From a virus, in the IMG/VR virus record IMGVR_UViG_3300047325_000181, positions 4,855 to 68,854 of that record: DNA of 64,000 nucleotides. One strand, given 5' to 3'. Every line of letters starts with the position of its first letter. The first letter of the stretch is position 1. Position numbers and translations under genes: made by a program. This document shows, one piece after another, positions 2,438-58,635 of the stretch. The notes under the pieces were generated by a model. That model ran no database searches and was not told where the DNA came from. It was given only the letters and a program-made list of their open reading frames with translations.

Positions 2438-2459
2438 TATTCCGACCAAGGTCAACTCG

Positions 2460-3311
2460 TCAAGTGGCCGCTGGCTTTTCCTTACCGAGTCGCTCTCCAG
2501 CCGACTCAATGATGGCCGGGACGCTCGACGCGCGTAGCTCGCTCAGTTCATCGACACTCGTCACGCCGTAGGTGGTGAGCGTTGAGGCGAGCGCGGCGTC
2601 GGCAGTTGCTTTCCCGTAACGGTTCGAGACCGCCGAGTACGCCTTGCGGACCGCCTGCTTTTGGTCGGCCGTGATGGAGCCTTTATCACCGCTCAGGACG
2701 GGCGTCTTATCGGTGCGCGCCTTCGTGTTGCCCCCCGGCGTATCGCTCACCGCGATATTGAAGACCGCCTGAAGCGCCTGCTTCTTCGCGGCCGTCAGCG
2801 CTTTCTTGAAGTACGACGTCCCGCCGTAGTCGACGTCGATGCCGATGAAGTCGCCCATCGCCCGCTCGAAGCCCGTCTCGGTGTCGCCGAGCGTGAGGCG
2901 TAGGTTGATTTGCCCCTGCATAACCGCGGCGCCCTTCTGCGTCGAGCCCTCCAGCTTCGTCGCTTCGTGTTTTACGGGCGTGAAGATGATGGCGAGCCCG
3001 GCGTTTGACGCGGCCTCGTTCGCAGCTTCGACGATGTCCTCATCCTTGATGTACGCGAAGCCCTTGTCGTGGCGGCCTGTCGCGCCGAGCTTCCCGATGG
3101 AACGCTGGGCGAGGCTGAGCTTCGCGAAGAACTTCGCCTTGAGCGCGAGGGTCTTCTCGTTCTCCGCGACCATCTCGCGCAGGGCGGCCATCTCGGCCGG
3201 GACCTGGACCTGCGAGGGCGTGATGGGACGGGCCTGGAGGTCGCGCACCCCATTGCGGTAGATGTCGATGGCCTCCCCCGCTTGCGTGATGTCTTCGAGA
3301 CCCGCGCTCAT
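2460..3311 (-). CDS. ERF-family single-strand annealing recombinase
   Basis: GFAYIKDEDIVEAANEA..GL and KALTAAKKQALQAVFNI motifs resemble ERF. Confidence 0.7.
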   Translation of the reverse strand: MSAGLEDITQAGEAIDIYRNGVRDLQARPITPSQVQVPAEMAALREMVAENEKTLALKAKFFAKLSLAQRSIGKLGATGRHDKGFAYIKDEDIVEAANEAASNAGLAIIFTPVKHEATKLEGSTQKGAAVMQGQINLRLTLGDTETGFERAMGDFIGIDVDYGGTSYFKKALTAAKKQALQAVFNIAVSDTPGGNTKARTDKTPVLSGDKGSITADQKQAVRKAYSAVSNRYGKATADAALASTLTTYGVTSVDELSELRASSVPAIIESAGERLGKEKPAAT

Positions 3312-3847
3312 TCCGGCAACTCCGGCGCCCGGCGCTGCACGACGACCTCGATGGGACCGTCGACGTAGCGGAGCGCGCGCGACATGATTTCGGCGAGTGC
3401 GCCGCCGTACTTCTTGGCGTACTTTTTGAGTGCCGCGGCGTCGGTCTTGACTTGCGGCGGCGGCTGGACGACCGAGACCATCTCAGCCCGCTCGTGCGCC
3501 GGGATTTCCGTCAGGAACTCGATTTCCTTGAACGTGAACTCGTTCTTTTCGAGCTTCTTGCTCTGCTTGTACTCGATGACGTAGTCGACGCTCGGGAGCG
3601 CGGTCGCGTTCGCGGCCTGCATGCGCCGGTAGAGTTCGTGCTGGAGCGACTTCTTGTAGAGCGTCGCTTCGTCGATGGCCTTGCGCAGTGAGGCGATGCG
3701 CTCGTCCGAGTAGATGACCTCGTCGGCGATGTCCGCGAGCGGCATATGCTCGAAGATGACATCGACCTCGCCGAGTTCGACGGACTCTCCGGCCCGCGTG
3801 ATGCTGAAGTGTTCGCCCGATTCGGCCGTGATGACCTGAGTATCCAT
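3308..3847 (-). CDS. Coiled-coil protein, possibly Gam/Gp157-like
   Basis: ATG at 3847 with AGGAG Shine-Dalgarno; helical; next to ERF. Confidence 0.5.
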   Translation of the reverse strand: MDTQVITAESGEHFSITRAGESVELGEVDVIFEHMPLADIADEVIYSDERIASLRKAIDEATLYKKSLQHELYRRMQAANATALPSVDYVIEYKQSKKLEKNEFTFKEIEFLTEIPAHERAEMVSVVQPPPQVKTDAAALKKYAKKYGGALAEIMSRALRYVDGPIEVVVQRRAPELPE

Positions 3848-3860
3848 CCTTGCTCCTAGA

Positions 3861-3974
3861 GTGAGGGCCCCCGTGATGAAGCGGGGGCCCTCGGTTGTGG
3901 AGGTAGCGGGGACGGCGGTTCGTGGCCACCGTCCCCCGGAACTGGCCCACCTGTGAGGAGAAGCCCTATTCCGT
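3861..3974 (-). ncRNA. Structured leader / candidate bipartite antisense RNA (c4-like)
   Basis: Two 11-bp GC hairpins (3908-3936 loop CCACGAA; 3863-3892). Box 3946-3962 is complementary to 35852-35868 and 32467-32482 on the late mRNA. Confidence 0.6.
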
Positions 3975-3980
3975 GCGCTG

Positions 3981-4009
3981 ATTGTAGCGCGCTGCTTTGG
4001 GGAAGTCAA
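3981..4009 (-). promoter_or_regulatory. Promoter with operator overlapping -10
   Basis: TTGACT-17-TACAAT; operator CAGCGCGCTA at 3985-3994. Confidence 0.85.
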
Positions 4010-4039
4010 GGGGCCAGCGGAGGAAAGACAAGTCCACGG

Positions 4040-39562: not shown

Positions 39563-39619
39563 GTTTTCACCAAAGGTCAGTATACCACGCCGAAGCCCGA
39601 CCTGGCTAGACGACGGGAA

Positions 39620-41629
39620 TCACATGCGGCCCTTTTTCCGCTTCTTGTCCGAAACGTAGCCCTTGGGGGCGCCGGTCGCAGTAAAGCCCTTGCGGTGCGC
39701 TTCGGCCAGGTCCTCGGCGGTCGAGGTGGGTGACTCTTTGTAGTCGATGGGGAGCCCGGCTTCTTTCGCGGCGAGGGCGAACTCCTTGAGACCGGGCGCG
39801 ATGCGCGCGACCTTGTCGTGCGTCGAGTTGAGTTGCTCCTCGGGGACCGTACGCTCGCGGTCGGCGTTGCGCATATGCGCCACTTCCCGCGGGGCCTGGG
39901 CCTCGTTGAACTCGACGTCGTAGCCGTTGGCCATCGCCTGCTGGGCCCAGTCTTTGTAGCTGTCCGAGCCGGTCGAATCGTAGACGAAGCTGCCGTGGTC
40001 GGGGTTGCGGATGGCGTTCTTGAGGCGCTCCTTAACGACGTGCGAGGAAATCTCGTGCGTCAGGCCGCCGCCGAAATCTTCGCCCTTGCCGTCTTCGTTG
40101 CGCGGCTTTCCGGCCAGCGGGTGGTCTTTGCCGTACGGCTCTTTGATGACGTTATTGGCGAAATCGCGCGCGTCACGGAAGCCGGTCGCGCGCTGAATGT
40201 AGGCGTCGAGCGCGGCCCGCTCTTCCTCGGGGTACGCCTCAAGCTCTTTCCAACTCTTCGGACCGCTTGGTCCGTAGCGGCCTGCATGGAGTGGGCCCGT
40301 GCTCCCGCTCGGATGCTTGCCCTCCTCGTGGGAGAACATCGGGTTGTTCTTCTTTTCCGCGTCCGAATCGAAAACGGGCGCGTCCTTGAAACCCGGCTGA
40401 TACGCCTTGAACTTCTCGTGGCCGGGTCCGATGATTTCCTTCGTGTAGGTCCCGTCGCCGTTGTCGCGATGATGCGTCTTGCCTTCGTTCCCGGTATAGT
40501 CTTCGACCACGCCGCCCTTACCGACGCCGCCGCCGCCAATCATAAAGACGGCCTTGCGGCGCAGGGTCGAGGAGGGCGGGAGAAAGCCTTGGCGCTTGCG
40601 GTCCGAGACCGCAGCATCGTGGTCGACCGCGCCCGTCTCGGGGTTCGTATGCTCGTCTTCGATGCGCTCGCGGTCGGTCTGCGGCTTCTGCGCAGCCTTC
40701 GCCTTGGCGCCGTGCTCGTGCTTCTCGGCCAGCGCCGCGGCAGCACCGTGCGGCGTCTTGAAATGCCCGAGGAACTCTTTCTTGCCGTTATGGGCGACCG
40801 AACGAGCCTGGTGCGCGTCCTTGGTCTGCTTGATTTCGCCGACCTGGGCGTCGCCCTGATGGACGGAGTGGCCGTCCTTCTGCGGACGAACTTCGTAGTG
40901 CGACCCGGCCTTCGTTTTCACGGAGCCTTTGCCCGAGGAGGGGTCGATGCTCGCCGTCGAGCCGCCGACCGAGACGAACTGACCGTTCTCCGAGGAGTGC
41001 TCGTGACCGGACTCGTCTTTGACTTTGACCAAATCGCCTAGTTTCACGCTTGCCCACTTCTCCGATTCCGGCCGCGCGTCGAGCATCTCTTGGAGCTTCT
41101 GATTATGCGCGTCGATTTCGGCATGCTGTTCCGCGGACATCGGCTTCGTACCGTCTTTCGTGTACTTCGCCTGAAGCCGGTGAATCATGTCGCGGTGGCT
41201 TTTGATGTCGTCCTTGCTGCTGGAGACGCCGGAGCCGCCGGACGTGAACTTGCCGTCCGGGTCGCGGGCTTGGTCTGACTTCTTCACTTTTGGCTTACTG
41301 CGCCAGATTGACTTGGCTTCTGGTTCCGGTTTCTTGGCGTAGAACGAGCCGACTTCTGCCTCAGCCTTGTCTTTGTGAGCATCGCACGACATAACGCGGG
41401 CTCCGTCGCGATAGTCAGCCTCAGCGTGAGAGGTGATGTGGGCCGACTTTTCCCCGCAATACTTACATTTGCCATAAGAGTGCGGCCTCGTCTTGACGCC
41501 CATCGAGTAGGAATCGGAGACGCGCTCACCTTGCACCCCCCAGCCGGACGTAAACTTGCCGTCCGCGTCACGAGACTGGTCTTTGATGAGGTCTCCGAGC
41601 TTCACGGCTTTCTCCTTATTTTGAGGCAC
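39620..41629 (-). CDS. Multidomain head-module protein with RDxxGKF repeats and C-terminal Zeta-toxin-like P-loop kinase
   Basis: KAVFMIGGGGVGKG, FDSDAEKK, FVYDSTG, GYDV..A..RNADRERTVP; DQSRDADGKFTSG and DQARDPDGKFTSG. Confidence 0.75.
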   Translation of the reverse strand: MPQNKEKAVKLGDLIKDQSRDADGKFTSGWGVQGERVSDSYSMGVKTRPHSYGKCKYCGEKSAHITSHAEADYRDGARVMSCDAHKDKAEAEVGSFYAKKPEPEAKSIWRSKPKVKKSDQARDPDGKFTSGGSGVSSSKDDIKSHRDMIHRLQAKYTKDGTKPMSAEQHAEIDAHNQKLQEMLDARPESEKWASVKLGDLVKVKDESGHEHSSENGQFVSVGGSTASIDPSSGKGSVKTKAGSHYEVRPQKDGHSVHQGDAQVGEIKQTKDAHQARSVAHNGKKEFLGHFKTPHGAAAALAEKHEHGAKAKAAQKPQTDRERIEDEHTNPETGAVDHDAAVSDRKRQGFLPPSSTLRRKAVFMIGGGGVGKGGVVEDYTGNEGKTHHRDNGDGTYTKEIIGPGHEKFKAYQPGFKDAPVFDSDAEKKNNPMFSHEEGKHPSGSTGPLHAGRYGPSGPKSWKELEAYPEEERAALDAYIQRATGFRDARDFANNVIKEPYGKDHPLAGKPRNEDGKGEDFGGGLTHEISSHVVKERLKNAIRNPDHGSFVYDSTGSDSYKDWAQQAMANGYDVEFNEAQAPREVAHMRNADRERTVPEEQLNSTHDKVARIAPGLKEFALAAKEAGLPIDYKESPTSTAEDLAEAHRKGFTATGAPKGYVSDKKRKKGRM

Positions 41630-41662
41630 ATCTCGTCCTCCTGGGCTCGCTTGAGGTTCGCG

Positions 41663-42193
41663 TCAGGCGCGCGAAGTCCTCAAGGCCAGGCGCTCGCAGA
41701 CGAAGCTATTGTCTTCCTCGACCACGAGGTCGATGACCATGCTCTCGACGGTCTCGTACTTGAAGTCGTCGCGCGCGACGCGCCCTTCGAGATTCGAGGC
41801 GAAGAGGATGCGGCCGAAGAGCGCCGCCGGGGCGAGCCCGAGCACGATTTGGGGCGCGGCGGTCGTAATCACCATCCCGGCCGGGCGCTTTTCGAGCGTT
41901 ACCGAGCGGCGCTCGGCTTCGGACCAGTCCGATTCGAGAACGGCGCTGACCCCGTCGTAGGGGCCGAGATTCTTGAGACGCTGGAAAGTCGAGGCCCAGT
42001 TCTGAGCGGCCCAGGTCCCCTGGAGAACGGTCAGCGCCCCGAGCAGCATGCAATCGCCAGTGTAAACCGCGGCCCCGATGCGCGTCACGCGCCGGAAGCG
42101 GGCGCGGTGCGTCAGGACCAGTTCGCCGACGGCCACGTACTCAATCGGGACGAGACCGCGCTGCGTGACGACGCGGCAACCGACGGCGACCAC
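41663..42193 (-). CDS. Stand-alone degenerate Hint (intein-like) domain
   Basis: MVAVGCRVVTQRGLVPIEYVAVGELVLTHRARFRRV and VIDLVVEEDNSFVCE align with the neighbouring intein; no C/S1, no TxxH, no terminal HN. Confidence 0.8.
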   Translation of the reverse strand: MVAVGCRVVTQRGLVPIEYVAVGELVLTHRARFRRVTRIGAAVYTGDCMLLGALTVLQGTWAAQNWASTFQRLKNLGPYDGVSAVLESDWSEAERRSVTLEKRPAGMVITTAAPQIVLGLAPAALFGRILFASNLEGRVARDDFKYETVESMVIDLVVEEDNSFVCERLALRTSRA

Positions 42194-43963
42194 TTACGTG
42201 GGCTCGTAGGGAAGCCAGACGCACCGGCAGTTGTGAACCGCAATTCCTTCCACGATAAACGAAGCGTCGCGCTCGACTTGCAAGCAAACGACATCGCCTC
42301 CGTAAAGGGATTGTGATATACTTGACTCGTGCTCTCTAAGGACGAGGTTGCCACACTTTACGCCAAGCACATCGCTGACGGCTTCAGCGTAAAGGAGCTT
42401 GCTCGCGACATCGGACGCAGTCGCGCCTATTTGGTTGCGCAATTCGAGCGCTACGGCCTGAAGCAACGCGGCATCGCCGACTCGAATCGAGTGACGCGAA
42501 AGCGACTCAAACACGCCCTCACCCTTCAAAGTAAGGGCTCTATGACGGTTCTCGAAAAGCTGATGCACGACGCGCTCGTAGCTTTGGGAGAGAGCCCGGT
42601 TTCTCAATACGCTGTCGAGTACCTGAATATCGATGTCGCCATACCTGACGCTTTGGTGGCTATAGAGATTGATGGAGGGGGCTGGCACGGAAGCGACCCC
42701 CGGAAAAAGACTCAGGACGCGAACAAGCAGGCGCTGCTCCAGTCGCGCGGCTGGGCCATTGTGCGCATTTGGAGCATTGGGAAGCGCTTTCGCAAGCGCT
42801 TCCCAGCCTATGCCGAGGACATTGTCGCCCTTGCCAATCTCCGTCGGCAAACGCCACCCGTCGCGCGTCAGAACGGCGTGGTCGCCCGTTATCCGCGCCC
42901 CGCCGATGTCGAAGATAGAGCCCGAATGCTTACGGCGAGACGTCGCAAGTACCCGCGCAAACCGTCCATGATGGGTAAGCACGTACTGACCTGGACTGAC
43001 CGACCCGATGCGCTGGAGCCCATCGGGAGTGATGACGCGACAATCTTCCGTGACTGACCTGGGATGCAGCGGGATGACCGGGAGATAGTCGTCGACCTTA
43101 CGGCCGTAGTTCGACTCGCCGATGATGTCCTTGATGCGCCGGGCCTTGTCGTTGATGAGGCGCAGGCAGTGGTCGCAAACGCGCGAGTCGTGCGCGCTCG
43201 ACCCGATACACCACTCGAAACCTTGGTCGAGCAGTTCCTGGAGGCGTCCCTGGCTCTCGGCTCTGGCTGTCTCCGTGATGGCGATAGTTCCGAAATCGAG
43301 GTTGTAGTTGCGCGTCGTGTTCGCCATCGCGCGAGCCACCTCGCGCGGATTCTTGCCGAGCGCCGCGGCGCCGATAAGCTGCTGGCGAAGCTCGGACTTC
43401 ATTTCCTCGAACTTGCTGTCTAGCTCGTTGAATGTATTGTGTTCGAGGAACTCGATGGCTCGCCGGTCCTCCGCCGTCACGGGCCGGTGCAGCACGGCGC
43501 GGCCGACGTTCGGCGCCGGGCGGTTTTCGCGGCGCGCGCTCGCCAAGCGGTGGTTGATGGCCGCCTCGGTCGCGAGCATCTGGCCGATGAGGTACGCCTG
43601 CATCGGGTGCGAGGCAAGCTCGACCATCGCTTTGGCCTTCCAGTCCTCGACGGACTGGTCAATCGTGTACGGGTCGAGCCCTTCCCACGTCCCGCCGGTC
43701 TTCTCGTAAAGCTGGTCGACAAGCTCGCGAAGCTGGCGCGCGAGGTCGGGCTGGCCTGCGATGAGCGCCCGGTACACCTTGTCTTCGTGCGCGCCGATGG
43801 GGCGGATACCGTGGTCCCCGGGGTCGCCCGGATGCCAGTCGCGCTTCTCTAGTTCGTAGTTCCAGTGCTTTTGCAGAACGCCGAGGGCAGCGTCCGGCGC
43901 GGCGCCCTTGCGAACGGCCAACTGCGCTAAATCGAACTCGACTTCGAGGACCGTCTTATCCAT
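42194..43963 (-). CDS. MuF / SPP1 gp7-like minor head protein containing an intein
   Basis: TIAITETARA..GR, DSRVCDHC, and PLHPR-[intein]-CRCVW. Confidence 0.9.
   Translation of the reverse strand: MDKTVLEVEFDLAQLAVRKGAAPDAALGVLQKHWNYELEKRDWHPGDPGDHGIRPIGAHEDKVYRALIAGQPDLARQLRELVDQLYEKTGGTWEGLDPYTIDQSVEDWKAKAMVELASHPMQAYLIGQMLATEAAINHRLASARRENRPAPNVGRAVLHRPVTAEDRRAIEFLEHNTFNELDSKFEEMKSELRQQLIGAAALGKNPREVARAMANTTRNYNLDFGTIAITETARAESQGRLQELLDQGFEWCIGSSAHDSRVCDHCLRLINDKARRIKDIIGESNYGRKVDDYLPVIPLHPRSVTEDCRVITPDGLQRIGSVSPGQYVLTHHGRFARVLATSRRKHSGSIFDIGGARITGDHAVLTRDGWRLPTEIGKGDNVLGIGWEALAKALPNAPNAHNGPAARLEQRLLVRVLSLFPGVASVPAPSINLYSHQSVRYGDIDIQVLDSVLRNRALSQSYERVVHQLFENRHRALTLKGEGVFESLSRHSIRVGDAALLQAVALELRNQIGATASDVASKLLYAEAVSDVLGVKCGNLVLREHESSISQSLYGGDVVCLQVERDASFIVEGIAVHNCRCVWLPYEPT
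42314..42322 (+). promoter_or_regulatory. Extended -10 promoter inside the intein, antisense
   Basis: TGA-TATACT, GTG start exactly 6 nt downstream; no good -35. Confidence 0.6.
42329..43057 (+). CDS. HTH plus Vsr/DUF559-type endonuclease nested antisense in the intein
   Basis: FSVKELARDIGRSRAYL (HTH); EKLMHDAL..QY..IDVAIP..VAIEIDGGGWHG..QDANKQALLQSRGWAIVRIW. Confidence 0.85.
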   Translation: MLSKDEVATLYAKHIADGFSVKELARDIGRSRAYLVAQFERYGLKQRGIADSNRVTRKRLKHALTLQSKGSMTVLEKLMHDALVALGESPVSQYAVEYLNIDVAIPDALVAIEIDGGGWHGSDPRKKTQDANKQALLQSRGWAIVRIWSIGKRFRKRFPAYAEDIVALANLRRQTPPVARQNGVVARYPRPADVEDRARMLTARRRKYPRKPSMMGKHVLTWTDRPDALEPIGSDDATIFRD

Positions 43964-44057
43964 CTGTGACTTCTATCATACAACGAAAGAGCCGTGACCT
44001 GTTCGGCCACGGCTCCCACGAATCGAGTGCTGGAGCGAGTTGCGCTGGCACCCGAAG

Positions 44058-44519: not shown

Positions 44520-46334
44520 CTAGTCCAGCAGCTTAACGAGGTCGTCGCGGAGCGATTCGAGGTCTGCTTTCTGAACCCCGCTGCCCGGAACCTGGGGCTT
44601 GGGCGGATGCGGCGGCTTCGGCGGCTCCGCGTCGCCGCCACCCACCCACACACCGCCGCCTTCCCCGTCCTCGCCGGGCGCCCCACCCTCGCCGCCGCCG
44701 TCTTCTTGCGGTTGGAGCGCGGGCAAGTCTTCGAGCTTGATGCCGGGCTTGGTCGCAATCGTGATGATGTCGCCGCCGGGCATCGGGGGCAGGCCGAGTT
44801 CGCGCCGGACCTCGTTGCGCGCGAGAATACCCGAATCAACCAGGGAAACGGCGCGCTGCGCGTCCTCAACGCTCTGCTCTTTATTGTCTTCGACGAACTC
44901 GAACTTGACATCGTTGAACGGGAAGATAGCTTTCGAGTAGCCGGAGAGGTCGAGCGGGTCGAGCGCGTTGTTCCGAATCCACATCTGGCCGCGGACGATT
45001 TCGCCGTTGATGAACTCCTGAATCGTGACCGCGAGCGAGTGGATGCCGCGGGACTGGGTCAGGTCCTTCTGCGTGTCGGCCGTCGTGCGGTGGAGGTCCT
45101 CGGTAAACCCGATGTCTTGGAGGGAGAGGCCGTAGACGGCGCACTTGACGTTCGCCCAGTATTTCATCAATTCGAGGACTTCGTTGTCGCGCATCGTCCC
45201 GGTCTGGAGCGGGATGAAGCCCTTGACGCCTTCCTTCGAGCCGATGAAGATGCCGCGCCGGATGCCCTTGGCGACCGACTGGTTCCACTTCATCTCGATA
45301 GCGTCGCGCTCGTCCTGACTCACTTCGGGGCCGAGGTCGAAGACGAATTGCGGGGTGTTGTTGTTGCGGAAGAAGTCGACCATGTACTGGTCGCCGTAGA
45401 GCGCGCCGACCATCTTCTCCAGGATGACCTCGACCGGCGGCTTCCCGTAGCCGGTGCTCTGCTCGTTCTGGAGCATGTAGACGAGTTCGTCGTTGTTGTA
45501 GTACGCCTTAACGATGCCTTGGTCGTACCAATCGTAGGCCGGTTCGGGCGGCTGGGGCGTGGCGAGGTCGGGACGCCGGTAGCGCCGGACTTGGTCGCCC
45601 GGCAAGAGGTAGAGTTCGCCGAGCGCGGAGCCGTCGCAGAGCGGATTCTTCACGATGGGCGCCGCGTCGTAGAGCGTCAGGTTGTCGACGATGCGGTTCA
45701 GGAAGGCCCGGAAGCTCGACTCGGCCGAGGGGTTCGGGCTCTCGAACATCTCCTGGACCGGCAGGATGTGCGACTCGGCCGTCACCTCATGCGCGGCGAG
45801 GCAGTTCTCGAAGAACTCGCGCAGCCGGACGTTCTGGGAGATGTCGCTTCCGGCCGACTGCTCGGAGGAGATGACGTCGCGCAGCGCCCCGGAGGCGCGC
45901 ATGAAGAAGACCGGGTCGAGCACCTGCGGCGTGAACTTCGCCTGTAACTGCGGGTAATTCATCGTCAATTCGGAGACGGTGTGCCAGCGCTTGAGTTCGG
46001 CTTTCACCTTCTCGACGTCGGGGACGATTTTCCACTTCATCTCGCCGATGGCGCGCTTGAGCGTGTTGCGAATCGCGAAGATGATGTCGTCGCGGTCGGC
46101 CAACTGTTCGAGCGTGTAGCCCGGGATAGCGTAGCGCGAGCGCTGGATAAGGTTCTCGCGCGTGTCCTTCGTCGACTCGGGGCGCATGAGCGACCCGCCG
46201 AGCGTCTTCGGGTCGTTGCCCTTGCGGGGCGAGACGCGCTCGGGGCCGAGGAACAAACGGCTGAATCGCCCCGGGTTCCGACGCTGCGGCGGGCGGTTTG
46301 GGCCGAGCGGGACGAGCGAATGCATCTCGGACAT
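44520..46334 (-). CDS. Portal protein
   Basis: DNLTLYDAAPI..ELYLLPGDQV..GYGKPPVE..FFRNNNTP..VYGLSLQDIG..RNEVRRELGLPP; start uncertain. Confidence 0.9.
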   Translation of the reverse strand: MSEMHSLVPLGPNRPPQRRNPGRFSRLFLGPERVSPRKGNDPKTLGGSLMRPESTKDTRENLIQRSRYAIPGYTLEQLADRDDIIFAIRNTLKRAIGEMKWKIVPDVEKVKAELKRWHTVSELTMNYPQLQAKFTPQVLDPVFFMRASGALRDVISSEQSAGSDISQNVRLREFFENCLAAHEVTAESHILPVQEMFESPNPSAESSFRAFLNRIVDNLTLYDAAPIVKNPLCDGSALGELYLLPGDQVRRYRRPDLATPQPPEPAYDWYDQGIVKAYYNNDELVYMLQNEQSTGYGKPPVEVILEKMVGALYGDQYMVDFFRNNNTPQFVFDLGPEVSQDERDAIEMKWNQSVAKGIRRGIFIGSKEGVKGFIPLQTGTMRDNEVLELMKYWANVKCAVYGLSLQDIGFTEDLHRTTADTQKDLTQSRGIHSLAVTIQEFINGEIVRGQMWIRNNALDPLDLSGYSKAIFPFNDVKFEFVEDNKEQSVEDAQRAVSLVDSGILARNEVRRELGLPPMPGGDIITIATKPGIKLEDLPALQPQEDGGGEGGAPGEDGEGGGVWVGGGDAEPPKPPHPPKPQVPGSGVQKADLESLRDDLVKLLD

Positions 46335-46474
46335 AGTCAACGCAGGAGGTTCGGCCGCCCGAGGGCAAACCCCCTCGCCCGGGGCCATGAAGTCATGGTC
46401 CGGGGACAATAAAAAAAGACGCGATGACGGGTACGCCTGGCTCGCGTTTTCTGCTTCTTTAGGGAGATTTTGAC

Positions 46475-46606
46475 ATGCCCGACAACGAGACCGCCGAGAT
46501 GACGATGAGCCAGCCCGAACAAACGGAAACGCCGACCTGCTCCCTACCGGACGGCGTCTACAACCCGGCCGTTCACGGCCCGAACTTTTGCCCGGACTGC
46601 GGCTAA
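46475..46606 (+). CDS. 43-aa CxxC peptide
   Basis: GGGAG SD, ATG, ends FCPDCG. Confidence 0.4.
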   Translation: MPDNETAEMTMSQPEQTETPTCSLPDGVYNPAVHGPNFCPDCG

Positions 46607-46866
46607 ACGAAGAGCAGTTCGTCGGCCAGCTTGCGGAACGGCGTGACCGCCGTCTTGCGCTCGTCGACCACGTAGAGCAACCCACTGCCGGTCGGATTGA
46701 TGTCGAAGTCATCCACCGGCAGTTGCTTTTTCCGGGTCACGAGCCGGAGCGCATAGTTCTCGGTCGCGGCTGAGAGCGCGCGGAAGTCGTCCCAGGAGCG
46801 GACGAAGCGGAGGCGCAGGTTGGCCCAGGCCGTGGCCTGCGGCGGGGTGAGGTTCTCGGGCGGCAT
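46603..46866 (-). CDS. Hypothetical protein
   Basis: Coupled to upstream gene. Confidence 0.55.
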   Translation of the reverse strand: MPPENLTPPQATAWANLRLRFVRSWDDFRALSAATENYALRLVTRKKQLPVDDFDINPTGSGLLYVVDERKTAVTPFRKLADELLFV

Positions 46867-58547: not shown

Positions 58548-58635
58548 GGGTCCTCCGTAAGTCAAAGTATACCACGGCCATCAAGGAAGGTCTAGGAGTG
58601 AACGAAGTCGGAGTTACTCACAGGACGCTTGCTAG

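Follow-up and report, generated by a model that had tools for sequence, protein, structure and literature searches.

An intein in a phage MuF gene with a putative homing endonuclease encoded on its opposite strand

How is an intein to be understood when the residues between its two splicing lobes resemble no endonuclease in their own reading frame, and the opposite strand is open across the same DNA? The question is raised by a 64,000-nucleotide stretch (hereafter the window) of a 73.3-kb IMG/VR virus record (IMGVR_UViG_3300047325_000181), in which the gene for a MuF-like minor capsid (head morphogenesis) protein contains an intein. This intein is probably one part of a composite homing element, made up of a class-1 mini-intein in MuF and, on the opposite strand, a gene for a homing endonuclease of the EDxHD/Vsr-like type with a helix-turn-helix (HTH) region. 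Four lines of evidence lead to this reading: the profile and structure matches of the nuclease, the predicted disorder of the intein middle, 44 further loci with the same arrangement, and a switch of the selected frame in pairs of related inteins. The initial annotation of the locus had reported coding on both strands of the MuF intein and had taken it for a dual-coding mobile element; the observation is confirmed by the present analysis, and the interpretation is supported by these four lines.

The MuF gene (42194..43963, minus strand) is one uninterrupted open reading frame (ORF) coding for a precursor of 589 amino acids (aa), intein included. The N-extein (MuF residues 1-302; 43058..43963, minus strand) ends in ...IPLHPR, the 276-aa class-1 intein occupies residues 303-578 (42230..43057, minus strand), and the C-extein consists of CRCVWLPYEPT followed by a TAA stop (42194..42229, minus strand), so that the precursor reads ...PVIPLHPR / SVTEDCRVITPDG...ARITGDHAVL...SFIVEGIAVHN / CRCVWLPYEPT. 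The intein begins with Ser1 (codon TCA at 43055-43057 on the minus strand), has T57-G-D-H60 as its block B (the T57-x-x-H60 pattern), and ends in H275-N276, followed by Cys+1. When it is removed in silico, the resulting 313-aa MuF is colinear across the junction with intein-less MuF proteins: SNYGRKVDDYLPVIPLHPRCR aligns with SNYGRTVKEWIPCVPLHVQCR, LHPRCRC with LHPMCRC and PLHPRCRC with PAHPRCSC, and the spliced ...IPLHPRCR pairs with ...VPLHVQCR of an intein-less MuF. This colinearity shows that the intein boundaries, and Ser1 as the first residue, are correct. Coordinates, motifs and the spliced product thus agree with the earlier description of a 276-aa intein with intact motifs that splits MuF at HPR/CRC. 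In an alignment of 44 homologous inteins T57, H60 and N276 are invariant, and C1 and H275 nearly so; position 1 is Cys in all 44 relatives tabulated, as opposed to Ser in the window. Serine is itself a normal nucleophile at this position among class-1 inteins.

The identity of the host gene is clearer from its homologues. Phage_Mu_F of Pfam scores 20.7 bits on the window protein, which is below the cut-off; it matches 11 of the homologous hosts in 44 loci, the best of them at E = 1.4e-18. The gene adjoins a putative portal ORF (44520-46712).

Within the intein, two Hint lobes flank a middle that has no predicted fold. In the AlphaFold2 (AF2) model the N-terminal lobe (residues 1-85, blocks A and B; 42803..43057, minus strand) has per-residue confidence (pLDDT) values of 82-98 and the C-terminal lobe (residues 241-276, blocks F and G, ...SFIVEGIAVHN; 42230..42337, minus strand) values of 90-98. 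Between these confident lobes, the in-frame spacer (residues 86-240; 42338..42802, minus strand) is predicted to be unstructured, with pLDDT 32-67 over residues 90-235. Foldseek matches the model, with probability 1.00, to the splicing domains of mini-inteins, namely Mtu RecA (TM 0.74 by target), gp41-1 and DnaB. In Pfam the intein frame gives only weak matches to Intein_splicing and Hint_2, and no match to LAGLIDADG, HNH or any other nuclease profile, as the initial annotation had noted for LAGLIDADG and HNH motifs. Confident lobes, a disordered middle and the lack of LAGLIDADG or HNH together describe a class-1 Hint domain split by about 150 structureless residues. The canonical bifunctional layout, with the endonuclease in frame, is ruled out by the missing nuclease match and by the disorder predicted for the middle, which also aligns poorly with its relatives in the intein frame. 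These roughly 150 residues are the back-translation of a nuclease gene: the spacer is the antisense of that gene.

The nuclease gene (42329..43057, plus strand) codes for 242 aa in the codon-aligned (-1) antisense frame and lies wholly within the intein. It had been proposed to encode an HTH region and a Vsr/DUF559-type nuclease, and profile searches bear this out. MTES_1575 (PF18741) matches residues 77-149 with 46.5 bits against a cut-off of 38.2, and there are weaker Pfam matches to DUF559, Vsr and HTH_23. Word-indexed protein searches returned no relative of the nuclease, and for the intein region only the window's own protein; by blastn, no INPHARED phage matched the locus. It took an exhaustive search with HMMER, over 1.84 billion representative proteins, to recover the family: 771 homologues have E <= 1e-3, of which 57 have E <= 1e-10, and most are 200-260 aa long. 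In a 40-member alignment of the family D102, E113, W119 and D130 are invariant, and E76, H120, G117, G141 and W142 are nearly invariant. The window nuclease retains all of these residues, and D115 as well.

Three regions can be distinguished in the nuclease. Residues 1-70 (42329..42538, plus strand) form a predicted helical, HTH-type DNA-binding region, with five helices in the AF2 model (4-16, 21-27, 32-41, 49-53 and 56-69; pLDDT >90) and with profile matches to HTH proteins such as 2LVS. The EDxHD/Vsr-like catalytic domain (residues 74-175, including E76, D102, E113, D115, H120 and D130; 42548..42853, plus strand) follows as an alpha/beta nuclease core, and the model is confident from residue 1 through residue 175. 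Compared with structures in the PDB, the family profile finds 3R3P, the catalytic domain of I-Bth0305I, at E = 4.1e-9, and the DUF559 structure 3HRL at 4.6e-9; Foldseek ranks 3r3p_B first (TM 0.75 by target), with 3hrl at 0.74 and Vsr (1cw0) lower at 0.51. The C-terminal tail (42854..43054, plus strand) is antisense to the intein N-lobe, and its residues 180-242 are predicted to be disordered (pLDDT 30-48, thus below 50 throughout). It is probably a run-on without a fold of its own, since it is disordered in the model and the position of the stop varies widely among relatives, falling on intein residue 12, 19, 25 or 74 as compared with residue 1 in the window. The TGA stop of the window nuclease at 43055-43057 is indeed the reverse complement of the Ser1 codon TCA, as had been read earlier. 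This coincidence looks incidental, TCA being one of the three codons that read as a stop backwards. The window nuclease also does without a linker segment of about 45 aa that is present in most relatives, including the closest one (L011).

The same layout recurs widely among viral contigs. When IMG/VR was scanned with the nuclease alignment, 61 loci with a nuclease homologue were recovered (loci carry L numbers here). In 46 of the 61 (44 distinct loci) the match lies within a long antisense ORF, always codon-aligned, at GC contents of 34-70%. The long host ORFs align as ...H-P-N / C-x-P-x-G-T...T-P-N-H-P...V-Y-N-L...H-N / C-x-C, and at E <= 1e-3 they match Hint_2 (33 ORFs), Intein_splicing (31) and Phage_Mu_F (11). 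In 42 of 44 loci the insertion is at H-P-[NH]/C-x-C, with the DNA consensus CAT CCn AAC / TGC Cnn TGC. Other insertion sites are found in L006 (= L058; 3368-5533, minus strand), where the element lies in MuF upstream of that protein's own HPQC motif (...SSHPCEDF/C...HN/CIYFEG), and in L045 (...RVMPDA/C...HN/CKHCD). The presence of the same unit at these sites suggests that intein and antisense nuclease move as one piece. Several of the MuF hosts carry extra C-terminal domains (InPase in 7; NUDIX, ART-PolyVal and DUF5661 in 1 each; alignment A2, loci L016-L075), as do polyvalent and toxin-bearing MuF proteins. Among INPHARED phages the sole relative of the window nuclease (tblastn, 35% identity, E = 5e-7) is in Gordonia phage Malisha (OP434458; L010), where the nesting was confirmed in the DNA: gene 5 contains an antisense nuclease ORF at 2485-3378 (plus strand of the locus). 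In the GenBank record gene 5 is a "hypothetical protein", and the antisense ORF is unannotated.

Which of the two frames is under selection was determined from related inteins, the window copy itself having no close relative for which there is DNA. The dN/dS comparison suggested in the initial annotation was made in a form suited to these divergences: differences between related intein pairs (61-99% DNA identity) were counted by codon position 1/2/3 of the intein frame, in which position 1 corresponds to position 3 of the nuclease frame. In the N-lobe the counts are 136 / 81 / 258 and in the C-lobe 19 / 23 / 74, whereas in the middle they are 894 / 475 / 548. Independent pairs show the same pattern. 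For N-lobe, middle and C-lobe, respectively, L020 and L021 differ by 14/8/39, 79/25/30 and 1/4/16, and L023 and L024 by 28/20/51, 77/19/40 and 7/2/9. In these relatives the lobes therefore evolve as a gene in the intein frame and the middle as a gene in the nuclease frame, with purifying selection on the respective frame in each case. The switch favours the earlier suggestion that the sense frame of the middle is kept open only so that it can be spliced out.

GC-rich DNA can hold long open frames by chance, and it might be asked whether the plus-strand ORF is one of these, with the intein middle an unrecognised in-frame domain. Within the window itself the openness is of little help. Read antisense, the nuclease gene contains 0 stops in its codon-aligned frame as compared with 9 and 7 in the other two. 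Given that TTA, CTA and TCA together make up 0.83% of codons in the phage genes, however, such a codon-aligned frame would stay open over 242 codons with P ~0.13, which is not significant alone. GC content by codon position is symmetric across the region (about 0.65 / 0.45 / 0.65) and picks no frame. The low-GC relatives were therefore relied on instead. Nesting also occurs at GC contents of 34-52%, a range in which open frames of 600 aa do not arise by chance. TTA, CTA and TCA are absent from all nested nuclease genes tabulated, as against 27 in a free-standing relative at 38% GC. Chance is excluded by the retention of the layout at low GC together with the profile matches. With a Pfam match above cut-off, 771 homologues, PDB and Foldseek matches to EDxHD nucleases, an in-frame middle that is predicted to be disordered and a middle that is selected on the other frame in relatives, we regard the idea of a chance open frame as refuted, and its probability as negligible.

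The nuclease gene might have its own promoter. An extended -10-like element, TGATATACT (42314..42322, plus strand), lies 6 nt before the GTG start at 42329, in agreement with the TATACT element and the spacing first reported, and is a candidate promoter for a leaderless transcript. The motif TGNTATACT occurs at 3 sites in the window as compared with 0.13 expected (39579-39587, minus strand; 42314-42322, plus strand; 58566-58574, minus strand); of the two other copies, one precedes the next late gene, within the intergenic gap and correctly oriented. TATACT-N5-8-RTG likewise occurs 3 times versus 0.16 expected, and at 5 other sites a relaxed -10-like hexamer is followed after 6-7 nt by the start of an ORF of >=60 aa. 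The earlier statement that seven other sites share this geometry thus holds in part: there are 2 other exact TGNTATACT sites and the 5 relaxed ones, and the sites with the exact geometry are not seven. TATACT plus 6 nt also precedes the nuclease ATG of L006, which differs in insertion site and is the most distant of the nested relatives. No -35/-10 pair was detected near 42329 in a scan for the sigma-70 consensus, the support for a promoter being the extended -10-like motif. TGNTATACT is probably a promoter type of this phage that has no recognisable -35 element. Upstream of the nuclease starts of 44 relatives the picture is mixed, some having TACAAT or TATACT 6 nt before the start and others a Shine-Dalgarno-like sequence. 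Intein block F has conserved V-Y-N codons, and their complement may simply account for part of the recurrence of TACAAT/GTACAC. From the motif and its position we infer a dedicated leaderless promoter, from which the nuclease would be expressed on a schedule separate from that of MuF.

Some members of the nuclease family are not nested. Among the remaining loci, 11 have no long antisense frame across the nuclease, and L035, a twelfth, has one whose codons are not aligned with those of the nuclease gene. Several of these free-standing nucleases adjoin an intein-less MuF gene, with the empty insertion site nearby. In L037 (nuclease 2447-3112, plus strand; MuF 3039-3908, minus strand) the two genes are convergent and the nuclease ends 22 bp from HPR/CSC. 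L039 (= L004; 1889-2791, plus strand, and 2754-4022, minus strand) is also convergent, with the nuclease about 100 bp from HVQ/CRH. The free-standing nucleases of both loci overlap the 3' end of MuF. In L027 (1151-2071 and 2126-2821, plus strand) both genes share a strand, with the nuclease start about 85 bp beyond HPM/CRC. Free-standing homing-endonuclease genes typically adjoin their own cleavage site, as in T4-type phages. By analogy, the position of these relatives suggests that the family targets the MuF site, and that the nested gene descends from a free-standing one.

Free-standing homing endonucleases, among them those of T4-type phages, can also act with an intron that has no endonuclease of its own (collaborative homing). 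The likeness to the present family would lie in the free-standing relatives beside an empty MuF site, and in a nested form that would combine a self-splicing element with a separately expressed nuclease. The difference is that here the nuclease gene is within the splicing element, and that a protein, not an RNA, is spliced. A larger scheme, which we put forward tentatively and to which we give somewhat less than an even chance, is that the nuclease family is a specialist of the MuF H-P-N/C-x-C site surviving in two stages, free-standing and nested; the two would form a series leading to merger, followed by spread over hosts of 34-70% GC and by jumps to at least two other sites. The same origin was proposed for actinophages by Gosselin et al. 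(bioRxiv 10.1101/2025.01.02.630785), without showing free-standing neighbours of the empty site.

Taken as a composite homing element, the locus could work as follows. The nuclease would be made from its own antisense transcript, probably leaderless and starting just after TGATATACT, and would cut intein-less MuF alleles at or near CAT CCn AAC / TGC, whereupon repair would copy in the whole unit. The MuF precursor would be translated straight across the antisense gene, the host frame being without a stop because the nuclease gene uses none of TTA, CTA and TCA. The intein would then splice out together with its meaningless spacer, restoring ...HPR-CRC... in the capsid protein. The element probably arose when a free-standing endonuclease gene specific for the MuF site came to lie within a mini-intein.

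Several observations weigh against this reading or leave parts of it less secure. The -10-like geometry is found upstream of only some relatives, others being Shine-Dalgarno-like. RNA runs holding the sequence were looked for and none was found, so antisense transcription, its start and its timing are our inference. The switch in selection was measured on relatives; the one comparison available for the window, with L011 (the nearest relative with DNA, 54% DNA identity), goes in the same direction and is noisy. Four DNA runs, from moss metagenomes and one coded organism, contain the sequence in their contigs, and no intein-less allele was seen there: no contig joint skips 42230-43057, although contigs cannot show absence. 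Finally, the window copy is atypical in having Ser1 and in lacking the linker of about 45 aa, which could mean reduced activity.

These features raise the possibility that the element is no longer mobile in this phage, the nuclease being an inactive or decaying remnant and the intein persisting because its imprecise loss would destroy MuF. Besides Ser1 in place of the Cys1 of the family, the lack of the linker that most relatives and L011 possess, and the absence of an empty allele from the contigs of the four DNA runs, a variant copy of the locus speaks for this. Run X2 (a single coded organism) contains a near-identical copy on a 98-kb contig at depth 159, with 31 differences over 2.4 kb (window 41600-44000), of which 2 are in the 828-bp intein, 20 in 41795-42079 and 9 in 43268-43331. 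One of the two intein changes is S92P, non-synonymous in the nuclease frame only, and the other is non-synonymous in both frames. On the other hand, the nuclease ORF is intact, all invariant residues of the family are kept and the predicted fold is confident through residue 175; the linker is missing in other members too (P0005, P0020, P0042), serine is a regular class-1 nucleophile, and the promoter-like motif is intact. We consider a remnant unlikely, though it is the likeliest of the alternatives. The nearly identical stretch around the intein in run X2, flanked by the two patches of clustered differences, could be a co-conversion tract or ordinary mosaicism. As a separate observation, the 98-kb contig may indicate a host or a prophage state.

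It is also conceivable that the antisense protein is expressed without driving the homing of the intein, having been recruited to another task, for example as a DNA-binding regulator or as a nuclease directed at rival phages or at the DNA of the host. The N-terminal HTH region would suit such a role, the MTES_1575/DUF559 superfamily includes non-homing nucleases according to the Pfam descriptions, and homing cleavage by the window nuclease is itself proposed from sequence and structural models. Against recruitment stands the tie of the family to the MuF H-P-N/C-x-C site in both nested and free-standing form, which is the signature of a site-specific homing enzyme. Moreover, the closest solved relative (3R3P) is a proven homing endonuclease, and the unit is found whole at other insertion sites. 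This makes recruitment improbable, more so than decay of the nuclease, and the composite homing element remains our preferred interpretation.

The initial annotation had left it undecided whether such an architecture had been described before. It has been: the antisense-nuclease layout in MuF inteins counts as known, because a PhagesDB survey by Gosselin, Arsenault and Gogarten (bioRxiv 10.1101/2025.01.02.630785, October 2025 version) reports "VSR -1 ORF" inteins in MuF-like minor capsid proteins. Malisha gene 5, Vivi2 and Angelicage are listed in its supplementary table among "minor capsid, MuF-like ... VSR -1 ORF". The window is a new example. It shares with those inteins the MuF-like host, the class-1 intein, the H-x-N/C-x-C site, the Vsr/EDxHD-like nuclease antisense in the -1 frame and the unstructured middle. 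It differs in that it comes from an uncultured phage of environmental samples (moss, peat and others) and not from a PhagesDB isolate, that the intein begins with Ser1 and not Cys1, and that the nuclease is shorter, owing to the missing linker, with its stop on the Ser1 codon. Promoters are not discussed in the preprint, whereas the window has a promoter-like motif. What is added here is the spread to non-actinophage, low-GC viral contigs, which exceeds the data set of that survey, together with the free-standing relatives at the empty site and the codon-position test. Ser1, the absence of the linker, the stop on the Ser1 codon and the promoter-like motif are particular to the window copy.

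Three other systems share single features with this element. Antisense LAGLIDADG endonuclease ORFs in inteins are known from Synechocystis DnaX and a Chloroflexus SpoVR-like protein (Gorbalenya 1998; Gogarten et al. 2002; cited in bioRxiv 10.1101/2025.01.02.630785); as far as that citation describes them, they too have an endonuclease opposite an otherwise continuous intein, and differ in their hosts and in the nuclease family, which here is EDxHD/Vsr-like. Dassa et al. (2009, PMC2677866) described "fractured genes", in which the two halves of a split intein are separated by a free-standing gene for a Vsr-like endonuclease. The nuclease superfamily is the same, and so is the presence of the endonuclease in the intein locus as a separate gene and not as an in-frame domain. 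There, however, host and intein are in two ORFs and splice in trans, whereas the single 589-aa ORF of the window would splice in cis. The third is I-Bth0305I (Taylor et al. 2011, PMC3239194; PDB 3R3P), a homing endonuclease of the EDxHD type that belongs to a group I intron within recA of Bacillus phage 0305phi8-36. It is the best profile and structural match of the catalytic domain, with the E/D/H/D set conserved, yet it is intron-encoded on the sense strand, has another DNA-binding region and is only 17-20% identical in sequence.

Downstream of MuF there are two ORFs of a different kind. Directly after the MuF stop lies a stand-alone Hint-domain ORF of 176 aa (41663-42193, minus strand), a paralogue of the intein whose first 58 aa are 41% identical to it (E = 6e-8) and whose C-terminal block F can be aligned. 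Its block-B His is replaced by Cys and it is without the terminal His-Asn. The ORF is kept downstream of MuF in L002 (3243-3821) and L011 (1707-2240), and 20 of the 31 differences of run X2 fall within it. Read-through of the MuF TAA into this in-frame ORF was considered and rejected, since there is a 1-nt insertion between the ORFs in run X2 and the frames differ in L002. It is followed by a 669-aa protein (39620-41629, minus strand) with a C-terminal P-loop region weakly similar to Zeta toxin kinases (Pfam 19.7 bits, cut-off 22.3), which may be head-delivered cargo.

The element could be of practical use, as it could supply a compact class-1 intein that tolerates an unstructured insert of about 150 aa, as well as a set of site-specific EDxHD nucleases. 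The nested nuclease is never annotated by gene callers, as exemplified by Malisha gene 5, and phage annotation pipelines therefore miss a whole endonuclease family. Over about 500 bp the locus is a natural case of two proteins encoded on opposite strands, in which the selected strand switches within one intein. The arrangement supports the view that in the origin of mobile inteins the splicing element came first and the nuclease later. If the tentative scheme of free-standing and nested forms is true, the two stages would document the union of a splicing element with an initially separate nuclease in a single mobile unit.

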